Below, piece by piece: positions 2,034 through 46,981 of a stretch of DNA of 64,000 bases; the first letter of the stretch is position 1, and every line of letters starts with the position of its first letter. A program made the position numbers and the translations under genes. The stretch covers positions 1 through 64,000 of IMG/VR virus record IMGVR_UViG_3300010376_000002, one strand, 5' to 3'. The stretch is from a virus (Duplodnaviria; Caudoviricetes). Below the pieces are notes generated by a model, which saw only the letters and a program-made list of their open reading frames with translations, was not told the origin of the DNA and did no database searches.

Positions 2034-3578
2034 ATGCCTGCTGCACCGGCACCTTTTGATTACTCGACTAGCGGTAGCTACGGCATCGAAGGTCCGTCAC
2101 GCGATTGGACTTCAGACCGAATTAGCAAGTTTGACCAGCAATACCAGCAGGATCAAAAAAACTTCGCCCATTATCTTGATCGCGATAGCAAAGGCAATCC
2201 GGTATCAGTGCCGGTTTACGGAGGTCAACGAGGCTATCACGTCCGACTAGCCAACGGCCGTGAAGGATTAATGTGGGGGGTTCCGAACGATCCGTTCCAA
2301 GTCACCTTTCAAGAAACTAACGTGCCGCCGGAACAACAGAAACGGGAGATCATTCCGATTCGGCCGGGCGCCGAGCATTACGCCGAAATGTTGGGCACAG
2401 TCAGGGACACAACTAACCCTCGGACCGGACAACCAATTACCATCCAACCTGGCAGTGTCGGTGATTTGGTCAGTAAGGCTAACAGCCTGGGATTCGCCGA
2501 AAAAAGCGTAAGTCGGCAAAACGAAGCTGCGCAAGTGACGCAGCAATGGCGCAACGCGATGAATCTCGATCACGCGTTCAATACGGTTGAAGAGTTAGTC
2601 AAGAAAATGGGTCCGGAAACAATCAAAGCTCAGCAGGCTTGGGCCGAGAAAGCTTCGTCACTTACCGGTGAAGGTGCTTTAGATCCTAACCATCAAGACT
2701 TTCTTAAATTGCTGAAAGCTCTCTCGGTCGTCAGTCAGTATGGCGGTTCGGCCGGAGCAGGGCTAGATCAACCTACCGTGGCGGGAGCAATTGGTACTAC
2801 AGTCAGTGGTTTAGGCGGAGGATTCTTCCCTAAATGGCAAGGACTAGCAGACGGTCTTAAGCTAATCAAATCCGGTGATCTCAACGTTTACGACGTTGCT
2901 GCCAATGTGCATGGCGCACGTCTATTAAATCTCCAGAATGCCGTCAACGAGGTGGGTCAGCGAAGTCACGATTATACGCTCCCGCTTTCGGAGCAGACTC
3001 TGCAACAGGCGGCTAAACAAGGGGCAAAGTTGGAATCTGGCTTGCTCGGACCAAAGGATGCACTGAAAAGCGGTGATGACTCGCAAGATCCAAATCGGCC
3101 GAGCATCTTCGATTACGAAGTAGCCCAGCACCAAGAGGCTGGACTTGCGCGAATGTTTCCAGGGACATCTCCAACAAATCAACCCACAAAGGCGACTGTT
3201 TCGCAGCCTGAATTCCAAGCATTACCTCCAGAGCAACGAGCACTGACGATGCCGAATCAAAGTGCTTGGCAATACCTGAACAATCCTGCCAATGCCCCAA
3301 TGGCGAAAGCAGCACCGGAGGCAACTCCTGCATCTCCGGCCGTGACCGTGCCAGCACTTGCTCAAGGTGGCATCGTGACGCGACCGACTCTCGCTCTGAT
3401 TGGCGAAGCTGGACCGGAGAAAGTCACGCCGATGACGGCTCCGATGGCGCAAACGCAATCACCGGCAATGCAGATCGCTCAAAACATGCCGACGCTCTCA
3501 GCTCAAGAACACGTCAATGCATTACCGGCCGGTTCACCGTTTCGATGGAACGACGGGCTGACCTACGTAAAGGTTTAA
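2034..3578 (+). CDS. putative internal virion protein carrying a tape-measure-type LAxGGIVTxPTLAxIGEAGPE motif
   Basis: Motif VPALAQGGIVTRPTLALIGEAGPEKVTP at ~3348-3434; ATG at 2034 preferred over the TTG at 2019. Confidence 0.65.
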   Translation: MPAAPAPFDYSTSGSYGIEGPSRDWTSDRISKFDQQYQQDQKNFAHYLDRDSKGNPVSVPVYGGQRGYHVRLANGREGLMWGVPNDPFQVTFQETNVPPEQQKREIIPIRPGAEHYAEMLGTVRDTTNPRTGQPITIQPGSVGDLVSKANSLGFAEKSVSRQNEAAQVTQQWRNAMNLDHAFNTVEELVKKMGPETIKAQQAWAEKASSLTGEGALDPNHQDFLKLLKALSVVSQYGGSAGAGLDQPTVAGAIGTTVSGLGGGFFPKWQGLADGLKLIKSGDLNVYDVAANVHGARLLNLQNAVNEVGQRSHDYTLPLSEQTLQQAAKQGAKLESGLLGPKDALKSGDDSQDPNRPSIFDYEVAQHQEAGLARMFPGTSPTNQPTKATVSQPEFQALPPEQRALTMPNQSAWQYLNNPANAPMAKAAPEATPASPAVTVPALAQGGIVTRPTLALIGEAGPEKVTPMTAPMAQTQSPAMQIAQNMPTLSAQEHVNALPAGSPFRWNDGLTYVKV

Positions 3579-22299: not shown

Positions 22300-23787
22300 A
22301 TGAGAACCGATGTAATTGTTAAGACGTGGTGGAACGACCTCTGTTGGGTCAGTTATGCACTCAAGTTCCTCCTGAAAAACTGGAAAGAGCCGAACTCGAA
22401 TTTTATCGTTCTAGCTGACGAGAATTGTCACAAGGTAATCAAGACTTGGGGCTTCCCTTCGAGCGTGAAGTATTACTACTTCCGACCTTGGCCGGATGGG
22501 AACGGCTTCCAGCAGTACCTCACGTTTCTGTCTGACCACGTCAGTGACGCTGATTTCTTCGCGATCTTTGACAGTGACATCATGCTCATCGAGCCCATGC
22601 AGGTTAGCGACCATATGATCGACGGAAAACCGATTATCTGGTTCAACCGTTATGATTCCTTTTCGACTCCCAGTGACATGGAGAAGGTATGGGGTCCGGT
22701 CACAGAGCGCTGGCTAGGAGTTAAACCTTACGCCGACTACATGGTCCGCTTTCCCTTCCTTTACCGGGCGAGCACGATTGCCAATGTGCGCCGATTCATT
22801 ACCGCTAAGACCGGACACGGCTTGGAGGATAGCCTCTATAGCACTACGCCTTATAAGCCGGAAAACTTTTTCAGTCATCCTTTCAAACTCTCGGAGCACA
22901 ATCTGATCGGGTTTTACGCCCAGTTGCACGAAGCCGATCAATACGCCTTCTGCGATATCGAGGGGACTTCACCCTGGCAGCAACGCTATCGGCATTATCA
23001 TAGCTGGACCCAGTGGAGCACCGAGCGGATGCGGGAGCTGGACAATCTCTATCTGATGGGCATCGAGAATCCAACTCCGGAGGATCAGATTATGCAGACA
23101 CCGCAAGGATATTGGGTCTTGAGGCGCGATACGCATATCAGTCGGTGGGTCGAACAAACCGGACGCCTGGATCACGACCAGACTGTCCTCCAGCAACTCC
23201 GGCAGTATATCCGGCCGGGCTCGACCGTGATCGATGCCGGTGCCGCGATTGGCGATCATACCGTGTTCTATCTCGACTCTGTCGGCGAAACGGGAAAGGT
23301 CTACGCCTTTGAACCTCACCCCCTCCAATACCTGTGCCTCGTTCGAAACTGCCCACGGGCGCTTTGTTATCCAGAGGCTCTAGGTGAGACTTTCGGCAAG
23401 GTCCACCTCTTTCACGAACCCGATGTAGTTGCTGGTTCGCGCCTAATCGATCCTAAACTCCAGTGGCCGATGACCGAGTGCGACCGCGTACTTCTGGATG
23501 ACGTCGTCCTAGAAAAGAATGATGTCTCCTTCATCAAGATCGACGTCGAGGGTTGTGAACCGGAAGTTTTGCGCGGAGCTCGGGAGATCCTCAAACAGAG
23601 CCGACCCACAATCTGGTTTGAGCAAAATCCAGAAGCTTTACGGCGCCAAGGTCACTCAATCGACGAGATTCGGAATTTGATTAGTGAACTAGGTTATCGC
23701 GTAGTCCGATTCTATCCCGATGGTTCCAGTTGGCAGGGTAGTCCTGATCAAAAATCCCAGTGCGACGTTCTCTGTGCGCCCGTATGA
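22300..23787 (+). CDS. glycosyltransferase-like domain fused to an FkbM-family methyltransferase
   Basis: N-terminal FDSD motif; C-terminal VIDAGAAIGDHT, YAFEP, FIKIDVEGCEPEVLRGA. Confidence 0.8.
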   Translation: MRTDVIVKTWWNDLCWVSYALKFLLKNWKEPNSNFIVLADENCHKVIKTWGFPSSVKYYYFRPWPDGNGFQQYLTFLSDHVSDADFFAIFDSDIMLIEPMQVSDHMIDGKPIIWFNRYDSFSTPSDMEKVWGPVTERWLGVKPYADYMVRFPFLYRASTIANVRRFITAKTGHGLEDSLYSTTPYKPENFFSHPFKLSEHNLIGFYAQLHEADQYAFCDIEGTSPWQQRYRHYHSWTQWSTERMRELDNLYLMGIENPTPEDQIMQTPQGYWVLRRDTHISRWVEQTGRLDHDQTVLQQLRQYIRPGSTVIDAGAAIGDHTVFYLDSVGETGKVYAFEPHPLQYLCLVRNCPRALCYPEALGETFGKVHLFHEPDVVAGSRLIDPKLQWPMTECDRVLLDDVVLEKNDVSFIKIDVEGCEPEVLRGAREILKQSRPTIWFEQNPEALRRQGHSIDEIRNLISELGYRVVRFYPDGSSWQGSPDQKSQCDVLCAPV

Positions 23788-41728: not shown

Positions 41729-42013
41729 ATGGGACGAGCAAAAATCGGCACCGGAACGCTGACTCCTTTCAAGAAGGGCGGCACCGGGAGCGAATCAATC
41801 GGCGGCTCAACCAGTAGGGAAGAGAGTGGACAACGCAAAGGTTTCACTAAGAAGATCTATTGCGATAAAGCCTCTCAATCGGTTACGAAACTTGTGCCGT
41901 TCTCTGACTCCGGCAGCGGAGGTCGCAATACGGGCGAAGGCGGAGTTCCGAACTTCCGCGTTCGCGATAACGGGATCAAGAACCCTGGTGGATACAGAGC
42001 ATTTCGTAAGTGA
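41729..42013 (+). CDS. small basic Gly-rich protein
   Basis: GTGA overlap with the next gene. Confidence 0.5.
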   Translation: MGRAKIGTGTLTPFKKGGTGSESIGGSTSREESGQRKGFTKKIYCDKASQSVTKLVPFSDSGSGGRNTGEGGVPNFRVRDNGIKNPGGYRAFRK

Positions 42014-42534
42014 GCGAAGAAGAAGAGGTTTGGAGAGCAATACCAGGGCTTGAGAATTATCAAGTCTCCAGCTTTGGTCGTATCTATTCGATGCCCAGAA
42101 TCACGCTGCTAGGGCGACCGTTCAAAGGCAGATTATTGGGCCAATACGTGAATAACAAAGGTTACAAAACGGTCAGCATCCAAGGTAAGACTTATGCCGT
42201 CCACCGATTGGTGGCGCTAGCCTTCCTAGGACCACCACCAGAAGAAATGGTGGTGGATCATGGCGATACCGATAAGACAAACAATCATTTCTCTAACCTC
42301 GAATACGTCACTGCGAAAGAAAATGTCGACAGAGCGGTAAAAGCCGGAAGATATGCTGCAAACGGCTGTCCAGCTGGAGAGCGGCATCCAAATGCGTGTC
42401 TAACTGATGCCCAAGTCCGAGATCTCCTTCATCTTGGCATGGAGGGGATGAAACCAAAAGACATCGCCACACATTTCGGAATATCCAGAAGTCATGTTTA
42501 CACGCTACTGTCTGGAAAAAAGAGAAAGGTATAA
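42010..42534 (+). mobile_element. NUMOD4-HNH homing endonuclease gene
   Basis: EVWRAIPG.ENYQVSSFGRI (NUMOD4), VHRLVALAF, VDH.D.DK.NN..SNLEYVT, C-terminal HTH. Confidence 0.9.
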
Positions 42535-42774: not shown

Positions 42775-42963
42775 ATGGCTGAGAAAAAGAAATGGATGGC
42801 GGAGGCTTTTAAGAATGCGCACGGGCAGCTCCGTCGCAAAACCGGCGCCAAACCTGGCAAACCAATTGCCGCTTCCAAGCTCGAAAAAGCGACCCATTCC
42901 GAAAGCACAAAGACTAAGAGACAAGCCGTTTTAGCCCAGACTGCACGTCGAGCTAATCGATGA
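42775..42963 (+). CDS. conserved small basic phage protein
   Basis: KKWM..AFK...G.L...G...GKPI..SKL.KA...K.QA.LA pattern. Confidence 0.65.
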   Translation: MAEKKKWMAEAFKNAHGQLRRKTGAKPGKPIAASKLEKATHSESTKTKRQAVLAQTARRANR

Positions 42964-43601
42964 TGAGAGTTATCTCAGGAATGACCCCCCCAGGTGGTTG
43001 GCATTTCCGGCAGAAGTTGGTGTCTCAGCCGGCGCGGCCGCGGGCGCAAGTCATCGGAGCGATGAGTTATGAGCAATTGGTCGAGAATGTATTTCAGTTC
43101 CGGCTCAATAACCTCGAGATGGTTCCTAGCGGCACAGCAACTCGTGAACAAGCAGAGCAAGACATCGCTTTCTATATCTGCGGACACTGGAGACACAACT
43201 GCACCGGCTCCGCAGCTGAACTTGCAAACGCTGGCAAGACGCCTCCGCCAGTTAAACATTACCCTCGACCGATTAACCGAATTGAGGACTGGCTTACCGT
43301 CTTAACTGAAAGGCCGCTAAAATGGGTGGACCAAGCTCGAGCAAGCGAACGAGCGCAGGTCTGTCTCAAGTGCCCGATGAACCAACCCTGGAGCGTCGGA
43401 AGTTGCAAACCTTGCAACGCCAATGTGGACCGCAGGGAGAAGCTGATCCGCGGCAGCCGATCAACCGGATTGGAACCCAAGCTCAAAGGATGTGTCTCCT
43501 TCGGCACTTTGCTCGTGCTCAGCATCTGGCTCGAAGACGACTTTACCGGCCCGAGACGGCAGCCGCCGGCGGAATGCTGGAAACTGACTGAAAAACGATG
43601 A
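42960..43601 (+). CDS. Cys-rich phage protein
   Basis: PPGGWHF, RAQVC..CP.N, C..C, L.GC, P..CW. Confidence 0.65.
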   Translation: MMRVISGMTPPGGWHFRQKLVSQPARPRAQVIGAMSYEQLVENVFQFRLNNLEMVPSGTATREQAEQDIAFYICGHWRHNCTGSAAELANAGKTPPPVKHYPRPINRIEDWLTVLTERPLKWVDQARASERAQVCLKCPMNQPWSVGSCKPCNANVDRREKLIRGSRSTGLEPKLKGCVSFGTLLVLSIWLEDDFTGPRRQPPAECWKLTEKR

Positions 43602-43744
43602 TCACTTTGGAAGATCTTAAGCAACGCACTGACTGGGAAATTCGAGCGATGACCCTTATCCAGCTAACCCGAATCGCCACTGCTCTGGAAGATATCGAGG
43701 TAGCGCTAGGAGCAATTTCGGATCGTATTCGTGAAAACGACTGA
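43598..43744 (+). CDS. 48-aa coiled-coil peptide not in the track
   Basis: MITLEDLKQRTDWEIRAMTLIQLTRIATALEDIEVALGAISDRIREND; ATGA overlap. Confidence 0.5.
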   Translation: MITLEDLKQRTDWEIRAMTLIQLTRIATALEDIEVALGAISDRIREND

Positions 43745-43753
43745 AGCTGCCGT

Positions 43754-44140
43754 ATGAGCGAAAAGATCCCGCCGGAGCCTAAAAACACCATCTGCATAGA
43801 CTTCGATGGAGTGTTAGCGGAGTACGACGGATGGAAAGGCGAAGAGCACTTCGGTTTTCCGATAGCTGGCGCCATCGACTTCGTTCGCGACCTGGTGAAC
43901 GCCGGTTACCAAGTATGTATCTGGACAACGCGCGCGAGTCGCGAAGGCGGCAGACGAGCATTGCAAGGTTGGTTTACCAAGCACGGGATGGATGAGACAA
44001 GGATTTCGCGACTCTGGTTTAGTGATGTGAAATTTCCCGCGATCCTCTACATCGATGACCGAGCCTATCGTTTCGATGGCATCTTTCCGACTCTGAAAGA
44101 GATCGACAATTTACGACCTTGGTGGGATAAAAAAGCGTAA
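43754..44140 (+). CDS. HAD-superfamily phosphatase
   Basis: IDFDGVL, WTTR, K, YIDD motifs I-IV. Confidence 0.85.
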   Translation: MSEKIPPEPKNTICIDFDGVLAEYDGWKGEEHFGFPIAGAIDFVRDLVNAGYQVCIWTTRASREGGRRALQGWFTKHGMDETRISRLWFSDVKFPAILYIDDRAYRFDGIFPTLKEIDNLRPWWDKKA

Positions 44141-44160
44141 GGTTACACATCTAGGACATC

Positions 44161-44200
44161 GCAGAAGGACGTGCCGTCAGCAGCACGTCCTTCTTGCTTT
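44161..44200 (+). terminator. intrinsic terminator
   Basis: Perfect 12-bp stem agaaggacgtgc/gcacgtccttct then tgcttt. Confidence 0.75.
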
Positions 44201-44231
44201 CGGCCGCCATACTACTAAATACATATAAAGC

Positions 44232-44345
44232 GCGCGGTAGTAGGAACGTATCTGCCGGTCACTTCGGATCATCGGCGTTGAGCTTGAAATTCTGGATAGC
44301 TGGCGTGAACGGGTTCCTCGGATGGGCAACCATTCGCCGCGCACC
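44232..44345 (+). ncRNA. candidate structured ncRNA with an acceptor-stem-like terminus ending ACC
   Basis: GCGCGG/CCGCGC, AGGAAC/GTTCCT, TATCT/GGATA helices, 6-7-bp GCAA-tetraloop hairpin, followed by T6. Confidence 0.6.
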
Positions 44346-44351
44346 TTTTTT

Positions 44352-44476
44352 GGGTCTGATTGGTAGAGTGAGGGTTGCGCCAGGAAAGCGCGATGACTTA
44401 AGCATCAGCGTCCTAGCAGACTGTAAGGTCGTCAGAAACAGCGTAGCCACTGAGGGTTCGATTCCCTCCAGATCCA
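44352..44476 (+). ncRNA. mini tmRNA-like RNA (tRNA-like domain only, Ala identity)
   Basis: GGGTCTG/CAGATCC-A acceptor stem with G3-U70, GAGGG-TTCGATT-CCCTC T-arm, stemless D region, 8-bp P2-like helix. Confidence 0.75.
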
Positions 44477-44542
44477 CTCTTTGTTTGATTTCAGCTCCGA
44501 CCGCGCGCAAGATCGTTTCTTGGAACGAGGCTTCGCTGCGCT

Positions 44543-46981
44543 ATGCCTGACACCTATTCCCCCGCTACGTCGTACGGACCAGGTGGTATCGGTCAATTTA
44601 ACCCACCCGAACTCAACGCAGCGGGACGTCCGACTAGCAAGCCGATCTCAAGTGCTCAACAGGCTTATTCGCTCTATCTGCGGTTCAAAAAACAAAACCG
44701 CGCGCGCGCAAACCGGAACAAAATTATTGCCGATGTGTATAACGGCAAAAGTCCTTACGACCAAAAGGAACTCGACGACCAGAACCAGGGCTGGCGCAGC
44801 AATATGTCGACCCAGTTCCTTTCTTCGATCGTTGACCGCGTCACGCCTCGTTTCACCGGCGCCATTCACGATATCAAATATCTGACCGCGGCCGAACTGC
44901 CAGACAGCTACGACGACTATCAGAACAAGTCCGAGCTGTACCAAATGAAGACGACCGAATTGATTAGGAAGTGGTCTGGCTGGACCGACTTCGTTCAACG
45001 CGTCGTCACCGAGGATGTGCTCCAGGGCTACACCATGGCTGCGAATATCGATGAGCATAATTGGCGGCCGCGGACCTATCGCCAGGAGGATGTGTACTTT
45101 GATGAACAGACTAGCCAAGACGTTCATAGGCTCGATTGCTTCTGTATTGAGCAAGATTTTTTCATTCACGAACTCATCTCCCTGCTCGAAGAGCCGGAGA
45201 CGACTGAGCGCGCCGGGTTCAACGTCGAAAACTTAAAATACGCGATCGAACACGCGATGCCGCCACGCGATGATTTGCCGTCTGATCCGCGGCAACTCTC
45301 TGATATGGCACGGGAAGCCTCGCTTTATTTCTCCTGGCATAAAGCCTCAAAAATGATCCAAACGGTTCACGTTTTTGTTCGGAATTATGTTGGTGGAATA
45401 GATCACTGGTGGGTTAACCGCGGCACCGGTCCGCAAGGGTCGACCGGTGTCGGACCGATGACTAACGATAACGTTGGCGGAGGTGAAGAATTATTCTTTG
45501 GCGACTCCGTTGCCGAGCTAATGGAAGACATAATTACCTTGTTTACCTTCCAATCTGGCAACGACCGGCTTTTTGGTAGTAAAGGGTTAGGGAGATTGTT
45601 AGTTAACATCGCAATTTCGATCGAACGTGAACGTAATTTATATTTCGACCAACAGTATATAGCCGGCTTACTCATCGGCACGGCCGAAGAAAAAGACATT
45701 CCATTTTTAGCGCCGAAGGTGCTCTCACCTTTCTTGATCCTACCTAAAGGGTTCGAACTGATGGCGCAACAATTGCAGTTTAATCCCGAGGCGTTTGCAG
45801 GTCTTGATAACAAACTCACCGCCATCTCAGAAATCATCGCCGGCACTTTCATACCCGAGCAAATTCAAGCCAGCGGACAAGTCGGACAAAGCGACAAGAC
45901 AGCCACTGAAGCAACTATTGACGCAACTCGTGAACAGGAGATTCGTCAGGGTATTTTAAATAGGTGGTGGAATCAGTTTACGCACTTGGTTAGTCAGATG
46001 CAGCGGAGGATTTACACTCCGCTTAACATACGGGCTGCGCTTGCTTTCGCCGAGGCACGCGACGAAGCGATAACGGCCGGACTGAAGCTCGTCGACCAAG
46101 AGATGATGGAACGTCTTTTGAAAATCGATCCGGCCGCGGGCGAGAATTATACCACTGCTCCTCCCTACGGGCGTGCTGACGGCGAAGCTGTTCAAACCAT
46201 AGTGCAGTTGCTAGACGCTGGGTTAGCTCCCGATGAAATCCTCTTATTAGCTTATACGCCGGCCCAGGAATACAATACGAATGTCGGTGCAATCGAGGAT
46301 AACAAGCTCCTGCAATTCGCGATGCAGGCACTCGCAAATCCCTACTGGGACCAAGGAAAATTAAATTTCGAAGCGGGCGCGGCAATGATCGGATATCGAC
46401 GGGCGAAAGACTTGTTCGTGGGTGATCCATCGATGTCGACTAACCTGGAACAACAGCGAGCGCAATACTCCGAATTCACCGACATGACCCAAGGTCAAGC
46501 GATGCCCGTCTCCGACCGCGACGATCACGTGCAGCATATGACTGCATTAAATCAAAAAATGATGGCATCGCTCAACACGATGAGGGAGATCCCGCCTGAG
46601 GTGATTCCAGAACAAGACCTCAACACGATGAAGTTGGCGCTACTTCACGGTGAGGCGCACGTGCAGGCCGAGAACAAAAAGAACTCTTCTATCAAATCCG
46701 GCGGCAAGGGTAAACGGACCAAAGAGATACAACCACTCGCCGCTCAGCTCGGTGAAGCTAACAAAGTCTTTGAAGCGATTTTAAATAACCGCGCGAAAGC
46801 TCAAGCCGCCCAAGCAATGGCTAATCCGATGGATCGGTCAATGCAACCTCCGGCGCATACTTGGCCATCAGGACAGCCGGCTCCGCTACCTCCTGGCACC
46901 AGGCATGGCATCGGAGGAATGCCCACCTCGCTTCCGCCGGCGACACCCAACCCCGCTACTGGAACCACTGTACCCGCTTGA
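44543..46981 (+). CDS. portal (head-tail connector) protein, putative
   Basis: 812 aa; YNGKSPY..EL...QGWRSN, FG.KGLG, E.TATE patterns; followed by a scaffold-like gene. Confidence 0.7.
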   Translation: MPDTYSPATSYGPGGIGQFNPPELNAAGRPTSKPISSAQQAYSLYLRFKKQNRARANRNKIIADVYNGKSPYDQKELDDQNQGWRSNMSTQFLSSIVDRVTPRFTGAIHDIKYLTAAELPDSYDDYQNKSELYQMKTTELIRKWSGWTDFVQRVVTEDVLQGYTMAANIDEHNWRPRTYRQEDVYFDEQTSQDVHRLDCFCIEQDFFIHELISLLEEPETTERAGFNVENLKYAIEHAMPPRDDLPSDPRQLSDMAREASLYFSWHKASKMIQTVHVFVRNYVGGIDHWWVNRGTGPQGSTGVGPMTNDNVGGGEELFFGDSVAELMEDIITLFTFQSGNDRLFGSKGLGRLLVNIAISIERERNLYFDQQYIAGLLIGTAEEKDIPFLAPKVLSPFLILPKGFELMAQQLQFNPEAFAGLDNKLTAISEIIAGTFIPEQIQASGQVGQSDKTATEATIDATREQEIRQGILNRWWNQFTHLVSQMQRRIYTPLNIRAALAFAEARDEAITAGLKLVDQEMMERLLKIDPAAGENYTTAPPYGRADGEAVQTIVQLLDAGLAPDEILLLAYTPAQEYNTNVGAIEDNKLLQFAMQALANPYWDQGKLNFEAGAAMIGYRRAKDLFVGDPSMSTNLEQQRAQYSEFTDMTQGQAMPVSDRDDHVQHMTALNQKMMASLNTMREIPPEVIPEQDLNTMKLALLHGEAHVQAENKKNSSIKSGGKGKRTKEIQPLAAQLGEANKVFEAILNNRAKAQAAQAMANPMDRSMQPPAHTWPSGQPAPLPPGTRHGIGGMPTSLPPATPNPATGTTVPA

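Follow-up and report, generated by a model that had tools for sequence, protein, structure and literature searches.

What does a phage gain from an RNA that ends like a transfer RNA (tRNA) and has no anticodon loop? The question is raised by positions 44232-44345 (plus strand) of the DNA analysed here, hereafter the window, which consists of the first 64,000 nucleotides (nt) of IMG/VR record IMGVR_UViG_3300010376_000002 (Duplodnaviria; Caudoviricetes), an uncultured virus record of 73.8 kb that bears direct terminal repeats. Soil metagenomes contain the window sequence, and at least two soil metagenome runs yielded DNA contigs with an identical copy of the element itself. An original prediction, made from the letters alone, had described this segment as a structured RNA with an acceptor-like stem and, together with a transfer-messenger RNA (tmRNA)-like domain immediately downstream, as part of a cassette of two tRNA mimics processed from one transcript. 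We find that 44232-44345 is a real conserved structured RNA gene, and we propose, with a probability of roughly 0.55, that its product is a mimic of the tRNA acceptor arm that would be matured by host tRNA-processing enzymes.

The existence of the gene is established by its homologues. A BLAST comparison with the whole records of related phages returned a 48-nt match in record G001, approximately 7 kb from the G001 copy of the 812-amino-acid (aa) gene that follows the element in the window. The G001 sequence has the same closing helix (P1) and the same GUAUCU and GUGAACGG blocks as the window copy; its inner helix P2 reads GCGAGC/GCUCGC in place of AGGAAC/GUUCCU, and the hairpin P4 has been rebuilt with different base pairs. 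Pattern scans of the viral collection, filtered by covariance models, were the route to the remaining members, and the family now comprises 12 distinct sequences in 14 uncultured phage contigs, the window copy included, measuring about 72-111 nt from the first base of P1 (+1) to its last. P1, P2 and P4 are kept with compensatory changes in the 11 other distinct sequences, and because three helices are maintained in this manner their agreement lies far beyond chance. The homologue search and covariation check suggested with the original prediction came out in favour of the RNA.

A model-fitted alignment of 10 distinct sequences was used for the covariation statistics. With the caveat that an alignment of this kind is fitted to its model and that the sequences are related, standard pairs form in 94.5% of the cells compared with 76.2% in shuffles, none of 500 shuffles reaching 94.5%, and pairing falls to 39-50% when the partners are slid by 1-3 columns. 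Likewise, the covariation score is 0.497, as against at most 0.106 (0.05-0.11) after sliding. Both sides have changed in 16 of the 26 pairs (shuffle mean 8.0), including 5 of 7 in P1 and 5 of 6 in P4, and each of P1, P2 and P4 contains compensatory pairs. In addition, every member independently folds to the same three-way architecture of P1, P2 and P4, with the internal loop and a purine-C-C (R-C-C) tail. The plus strand, as had been proposed, is the RNA strand, since the conserved G-U pairs would be A-C mismatches on the minus strand, and the minus-strand fold is unremarkable (z -0.8, no better than shuffles). A 118-aa open reading frame, 44194-44550, runs across the element, and its translation under protein-level selection would have spoken against an RNA gene; the frame is not conserved, being broken by stops in 10 of the 11 other members and by indels that are not multiples of three, and no reading frame stays open across the members.

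The window copy is predicted to fold into a three-way junction of -47.9 kcal/mol (RNAfold), and the trimmed element is more stable than its shuffles (z -3.36), 1 of 200 folding equally well. P1 has 7 base pairs (bp), P2 has 6, and P4 has 6 with a GCAA cap and is stacked directly on P1 (Table 1). Much of this had been read correctly from the sequence. The terminal helix GCGCGG(U)/(G)CCGCGC is seen both in the sequence and by folding, and is followed by the ACC and T6 that had been pointed out; the AGGAAC/GTTCCT helix folds and shows compensatory changes in the family; and the GCAA-capped hairpin in T-arm position appears in sequence, folding and family alike. A GNRA loop is present in the window and in 9 of the 12 members but is not general, given that G001 has a 6-nt loop and L167 and L206 have A-rich loops of 8-10 nt. 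Two other pairings were not upheld. TATCT had been paired with GGATA, but GUAUCU belongs to the shared core, and GGAUA lies in a variable apical insert that only the window copy has; in place of the proposed GCCG/CGGC hairpin, the family supports the helix P3. The apical arm beyond the core is dispensable, L206 having it reduced to a 3-bp stem and a 5-nt loop. Overall, the observation made in the original prediction holds in outline and is partly confirmed, and its interpretation is partly supported.

The family is rare. Covariance model R2 gives a single match in the window, the copy described here, at 78.1 bits (E 2.3e-19); no other match at E<=0.01 was obtained in about 1.4 Mb of other phage and metagenome DNA, and nothing in four bacterial genomes or in 151-genome samples of two phyla, where the top candidates only were scored. 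A strict pattern returned from metagenome and genome collections only chance matches inside coding genes, and a pattern of the 3' core plus P1 gave chance matches only. The 114 stretches retrieved with a P1-only pattern were discarded, as they consist of conserved coding regions of GC-rich phages and an unrelated group of odd tRNA-like genes, none of which scored with R2. Relatives of G006 found via TerL do not have the element at that locus, and a blastn search of 50,697 deposited phage genomes did not find it. At gathering thresholds Rfam 15 matched neither the element, nor the window, nor 11 member loci, and at E<=10 nothing in Rfam overlapped the element, ribozymes, Y RNAs and the phi29 packaging RNA (pRNA) included. 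ARAGORN reported no tRNA or tmRNA gene in the window, and no description of this RNA was found in the literature by keywords or by core sequence strings. We consider the family a distinct variant among phage tRNA-like RNAs, with the acceptor half only, a 13-bp rod and an internal-loop arm of its own.

What such an RNA could be for is suggested by its ends. In bacterial RNase P, the GGU of loop L15 base-pairs with the 3' RCCA of the substrate, and the enzyme prefers U at -1 and A at -2 (PMC4919922). In the family, the G at +1 is paired with C in 12 of 12 members, U stands at -1 in 10 and A at -2 in 8, and R-C-C follows P1 directly in all 12, the next base being A in seven and U in five. P1 and P4 together amount to 13 bp in 9/9 GNRA-capped members, divided as 7+6 in the window and as 6+7 elsewhere, and the leaders of the other members are AT-rich, as is that of the window copy. 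These tRNA-end features lay outside the patterns with which the nine members of subfamily 2 were retrieved. The window, G001 and G006 copies, on the other hand, add little independent evidence on +1 and the tail, because P1 and tail are identical in all three, and the window copy itself has C at -1 (44231) and G at -2. The counts agree with the determinants of an RNase P substrate, namely U(-1), A(-2), G+1, RCC(A) and a stacked helix plus hairpin, and the family thus presents, on a rod resembling the acceptor and T arms, every sequence hallmark known for substrates of bacterial RNase P. In accordance with the tRNA-like ends originally described, the family shows selection on the acceptor-like closing helix, the hairpin in T position and the NCC end.

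The closest known counterparts are the minihelix and tRNA-like substrates of RNase P (PMC4919922), with which the family shares a coaxial acceptor-like helix and capped hairpin, G+1:C72, U(-1), A(-2) and a single-stranded R-C-C(-A) end able to pair with the GGU of L15. In contrast to those substrates, the family occurs naturally as a phage gene, has a rod of 13 bp and possesses a long third arm in which the conserved internal loop is located, and its cleavage is predicted. Its closing helix of 7 bp, purine discriminator, stacked hairpin and CC(A) end recall a canonical tRNA (RF00005) and the tRNA-like domain of tmRNA (RF00023), but the family is without D-arm, T-loop, anticodon loop and G3:U70. 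Accordingly, the element is no canonical tRNA: its loop is GCAA, and no Rfam tRNA match was obtained even at E<=10.

We therefore favour, on the strength of these sequence features, a reading in which the P1-P4 rod and the RCC(A) tail mimic the acceptor/T-arm half of a tRNA. Host tRNA-processing enzymes would excise the RNA from phage transcripts, RNase P cutting at 44231/44232; the 3' end would be trimmed to ACC, and the host CCA-adding enzyme would complete the CCA. P1 has 6-7 bp in the family and the final A is encoded in 7/12 members, but not in the window, where ACC is followed by U. Genes for a CCA-adding enzyme, SmpB and RtcB are absent from the phage, and any maturation would therefore have to rely on host enzymes. 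The resulting stable small RNA would act via its conserved internal loop, which may bind a protein or dock the P4 tetraloop, and would present a generic, non-decoding and probably non-chargeable tRNA end to any reader of such ends. Aminoacylation was considered and dropped, as P1 contains no conserved identity pairs: its positions 2-5 covary freely, which suggests that no aminoacyl-tRNA synthetase identity set is conserved, and position 3:70, a G-C pair in the window copy, varies across the family.

Several points weigh against an acceptor-arm mimic. The elbow contact used by RNase P and by the CCA-adding enzyme is missing, because P4 ends in a tetraloop or an A-rich loop and not in a T-loop, and the rod measures 13 bp rather than 12. 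Furthermore, U(-1) could pair with purine 73, extending P1 and leaving only CC(A) single-stranded, and in 10 of 12 members a run of U follows the tail, which would suit a terminator as well. The evidence comes from 12 related soil-phage sequences only, whose shared ancestry inflates the shuffle statistics, and the uniformity of the core is in part an ascertainment effect, all members having been retrieved with core-containing patterns.

As for function, we may hypothesize, tentatively and with considerable doubt, that the RNA is specialised in imitating tRNA ends and, once released by RNase P and given a CCA cap, would serve either as a decoy or competitor for host readers of acceptor ends or as RNase P-dependent punctuation of late mRNAs, its internal loop recruiting a specific protein. 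The targets of a decoy may include acceptor-end-targeting toxins, defence nucleases or RNase P itself, and punctuation may set the ends and the stability of late-gene mRNAs. The internal loop was also compared with a kink-turn, the sarcin-ricin loop and a decoding-site mimic; the resemblances were only partial and these candidates were dropped. The family adds a structurally distinct, covariation-supported type to the phage tRNAs and the few unexplained tRNA-like RNAs, and it retains only that part of tRNA which processing enzymes read, coupled to a conserved internal loop. Should maturation by RNase P and the CCA-adding enzyme be borne out, the RNA would be a natural minimal substrate, and it could show how phages use or interfere with host tRNA-end biology, or how late-operon transcripts are shaped. 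As the family is small and sharply defined, the idea lends itself to direct testing in vitro, with no need for a host in culture.

Table 1. Features of the RNA element and of its surroundings in the window, by position
Feature	Position	Strand	Basis
HAD-type phosphatase-like gene, 128 aa	43754..44140	+	PHROG phrog_1238 (4.5e-16), phrog_415 polynucleotide kinase (3.9e-06)
GC-rich hairpin, terminator-like, weak T tail; closes upstream gene block	44161..44197	+	-25 kcal/mol, z -3.2
AT-rich leader, possible promoter or 5' leader	44208..44231	+	Sequence; no sigma-70 consensus match
P1, 5' strand GCGCGGU; acceptor-like, G at +1	44232..44238	+	Folding; family covariation
J1/2 linker AGU, purine-rich in all members	44239..44241	+	Family alignment
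P2, 5' strand AGGAAC	44242..44247	+	Partner strand at 44313-44318; G001 and G006 show compensatory changes
Core internal loop, 5' strand GUAUCU	44248..44253	+	Identical in 12/12 members, but part of the search patterns
P3 and variable apical arm (51 nt)	44254..44304	+	Base of P3: 44254-44258 with 44300-44304
Core internal loop, 3' strand GUGAACGG	44305..44312	+	Identical in 12/12 members, but part of the search patterns
P2, 3' strand GUUCCU, then a single C	44313..44318	+	Compensatory changes
P4 hairpin GGAUGG-GCAA-CCAUUC, T-arm position, no linker to P1	44320..44335	+	Folding; family covariation
P1, 3' strand GCCGCGC	44336..44342	+	Folding; family covariation
Single-stranded ACC (44343-44345), then U6 (44346-44351)	44343..44351	+	Sequence; purine-C-C tail in 12/12 members
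Mini-tmRNA-like domain (tRNA-like), separate from the RNA family	44352..44479	+	Rfam tmRNA 23.2 bits (gathering score 47)
812-aa gene downstream	44543..46981	+	Portal call plausible by synteny, unconfirmed

The rival explanations each account for fewer of the conserved features than the acceptor-arm mimic does, and each has some facts against it. The U-run and the genomic position of the copies could point to a cis-acting terminator or attenuator ahead of late genes, whose inner fold would be an embedded aptamer recognising an antiterminator protein or a ligand. In 10 of 12 members a U-rich run lies within 3-4 nt of the GC-rich P1; most copies are co-directional, intergenic and close to TerS-, portal- or head-type genes; the G001 copy closes a plus-strand gene block that faces convergent genes; and a conserved internal loop within a closing helix has the look of an aptamer. 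Nevertheless, the conserved R-C-C(-A) spacer is not part of the U-tract, L188 and L167 have no U-run, and the G006 copy, next to TerL, is antisense to both of its flanking genes. A closing helix that spans 70-110 nt would also make a poor kinetic terminator (in the window the loop is about 97 nt and the U-run begins 3 nt after the stem), and G+1, U(-1), A(-2) and the constant 13-bp rod would be left unexplained. In fact, a consensus scan of 43600-44700 called neither a canonical terminator nor a sigma-70 promoter, and altogether we regard this alternative as unlikely. The same scan qualifies two statements on the sequence preceding the element: the hairpin of the strong upstream terminator in the original prediction does exist, but is not called as a terminator, and the leader ahead of the element is AT-rich, as described there, but has no sigma-70 consensus match.

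The tmRNA-like domain 6 nt downstream raises another alternative, an obligate cassette of two RNAs acting, for example, in trans-translation or against it. Both RNAs lie on the same strand, between the hairpin and the next gene, and both have a 7-bp closing helix and A73; L170 also has its family member in tandem with a second acceptor-stem RNA. The topology common to the two RNAs of the window, on which the cassette was based, stands in a loose sense only: the neighbour has G3:U70 and a true T-loop, whereas the element is without T-loop, D-region and G3:U70, and the tmRNA model matches the neighbour and not the element. Moreover, that model matched only this phage among five records searched, G001 and G006 included, and gave nothing at Rfam gathering thresholds in the other member loci. 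Each phage record has one family copy, in varied contexts, and the partner in L170 is a different RNA without a T-loop. Given also that the phage has no SmpB, a cassette as a conserved unit is distinctly improbable, and as a general rule it is largely refuted by the distribution of the family, other lineages carrying the element without the tmRNA-like neighbour. For this phage taken by itself, co-transcription and release of the two RNAs by RNase P/Z-type cleavage would be plausible, and the window RNA probably precedes a second tRNA-type RNA in the leader of a transcript that runs into the 812-aa gene. The U6 run after ACC doubles as the 5' leader of the second RNA, whose gene ends in A-CUC and therefore does not encode CCA.

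Tandem arrangements with tRNA-type neighbours are found in two lineages, this phage and L170. In the latter, a tRNA-Met gene (2659-2734) lies 265 nt upstream and closes with ACC and then UUUU, much as the window element does, and a second RNA of about 76 nt (3102-3181, plus strand) directly follows the family member; this RNA combines a closing helix of 7 bp, GUCGGGG/CCCCGAC, with a three-way-junction fold and an ACCA tail, and is without the family core. Independently of these neighbours, the apical loops of L170 (3035-3050), L169 (5525-5540) and L167 contain UCACCUCCUUUCC on differing stems. This string matches the anti-Shine-Dalgarno 3' end of 16S rRNA and is absent from the other members, the window copy among them.

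The proximity of several copies to packaging genes suggests a third alternative, a packaging RNA working with the portal or the terminase. Like phi29 pRNA (RF00044), the element is a phage three-way-junction RNA of about 100-120 nt, and the family is often near packaging genes: several members lie within approximately 1.3 kb of TerS-, TerL- or portal-type genes, as does the element ahead of the 812-aa gene in the window, beside TerL in G006, 15 nt after a portal gene in L181 and L164 and 4 nt before a TerS-like gene in L206. In L211, on the other hand, it follows head-closure and sheath genes, and this copy and that of G001 lie away from packaging genes. More generally, members mostly sit in co-directional gaps between genes, within the late or structural part of soil phage genomes of 50-80 kb, and such module boundaries are places where accessory genes commonly accumulate. 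The element is absent from the close relatives G002, G004 and G018-G022, nearly complete ones included, and we accordingly regard the RNA as an accessory gene; an essential part of the motor does not fit, because close relatives with the same packaging genes do without it. As there is no Rfam pRNA match, and as the tRNA-like 3' end found in the family would have no explanation, we consider a role in packaging very improbable.

The sporadic, mobile-looking distribution could also suit a new self-cleaving ribozyme that cuts at the 5' edge of P1. A conserved loop in a three-way junction, covarying stems, small size and an intergenic location in phage operons would be in keeping with this idea, as would the 19-nt direct repeat (2226-2244 and 2382-2400, 95% identical) that flanks the element in L181. 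The first copy of that repeat is the 3' end of the portal gene, and since the portal end is duplicated, the RNA gene of L181 is suggested to have arrived by insertion with target duplication. However, no Rfam ribozyme class matches even at E<=10, and the RCC(A) tail, U(-1) and G+1 fit recognition by RNase P with no need of a new catalyst, and we consider a ribozyme a very improbable explanation.

Insertion is also indicated in the window itself. The product of the 812-aa gene has counterparts, about 75% identical, in five phage contigs, and in the relatives L002-L005, wherever the upstream sequence is reached, a cysteine-rich gene of about 200 aa runs almost directly into the 812-aa gene. In the window the gap between these two genes is about 940 nt and holds the HAD gene, the hairpin, the element and the tmRNA-like element, and because the two genes almost adjoin in related phages we interpret this region as an insertion. 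No RNA cassette is found upstream of the 812-aa gene in five related phages. In G006 the 812-aa homologue comes after TerL, a small gene and a cysteine-rich gene, and the portal identity given to it in the original prediction is plausible by synteny, but the protein has no Pfam, PHROG or PDB sequence match; it was not found in 301 genomes of one phylum.

Three neighbouring genes were considered as partners of the RNA and rejected. A homologue of the HAD-phosphatase-like protein, 44% identical, is encoded at 23184-23531 of G012, 3.3 kb from the family member of that record; only two element-bearing records have such a gene, and none was found in eight element-less relatives searched. The cysteine-rich protein of about 200 aa, with several CxxC-type motifs, is encoded immediately ahead of the 812-aa gene in this phage group (window 42960-43601; L010 1556-2182, minus strand; L169 4151-4747, minus strand), lies near three element copies and has no Pfam or PHROG match in the two copies scanned; instead of a specific partner, it is a syntenic core gene of the phage group. 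Finally, a 93-aa protein adjoining the G001 copy is not tightly linked to the element. HNH endonuclease genes occur 1.7 kb upstream of the window copy (42010-42534) and 140 nt downstream of the G001 copy (L007 1690-1995, minus strand), and may be relevant to how the region moves.

Small stable RNAs associated with tRNAs are known from other phages, namely the species 1 and 2 RNAs of T4 and the small RNAs of T5. Like the family described here, these are phage-encoded and non-decoding, have tRNA-like ends and sometimes adjoin tRNA genes. No sequence or model relationship to them was found, and the family differs in combining an acceptor half with an internal-loop arm of its own and in lying in late or structural regions of soil phages and not in tRNA clusters.

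A different set of tRNA-like genes, of 94-111 nt, was noticed in five phage contigs, four of them of 93-98 kb and one of 38 kb: L055 1474-1569 (minus strand), L063 9345-9455, L073 3654-3750, L093 1090-1184 (minus strand) and L122 3740-3833 (minus strand). ARAGORN calls one of the five, as tRNA-Arg (CCG), and Rfam none at gathering thresholds. In all five, the D- and T-arms are normal, positions 1:72 are mismatched, and a long two-tier arm replaces the anticodon arm.
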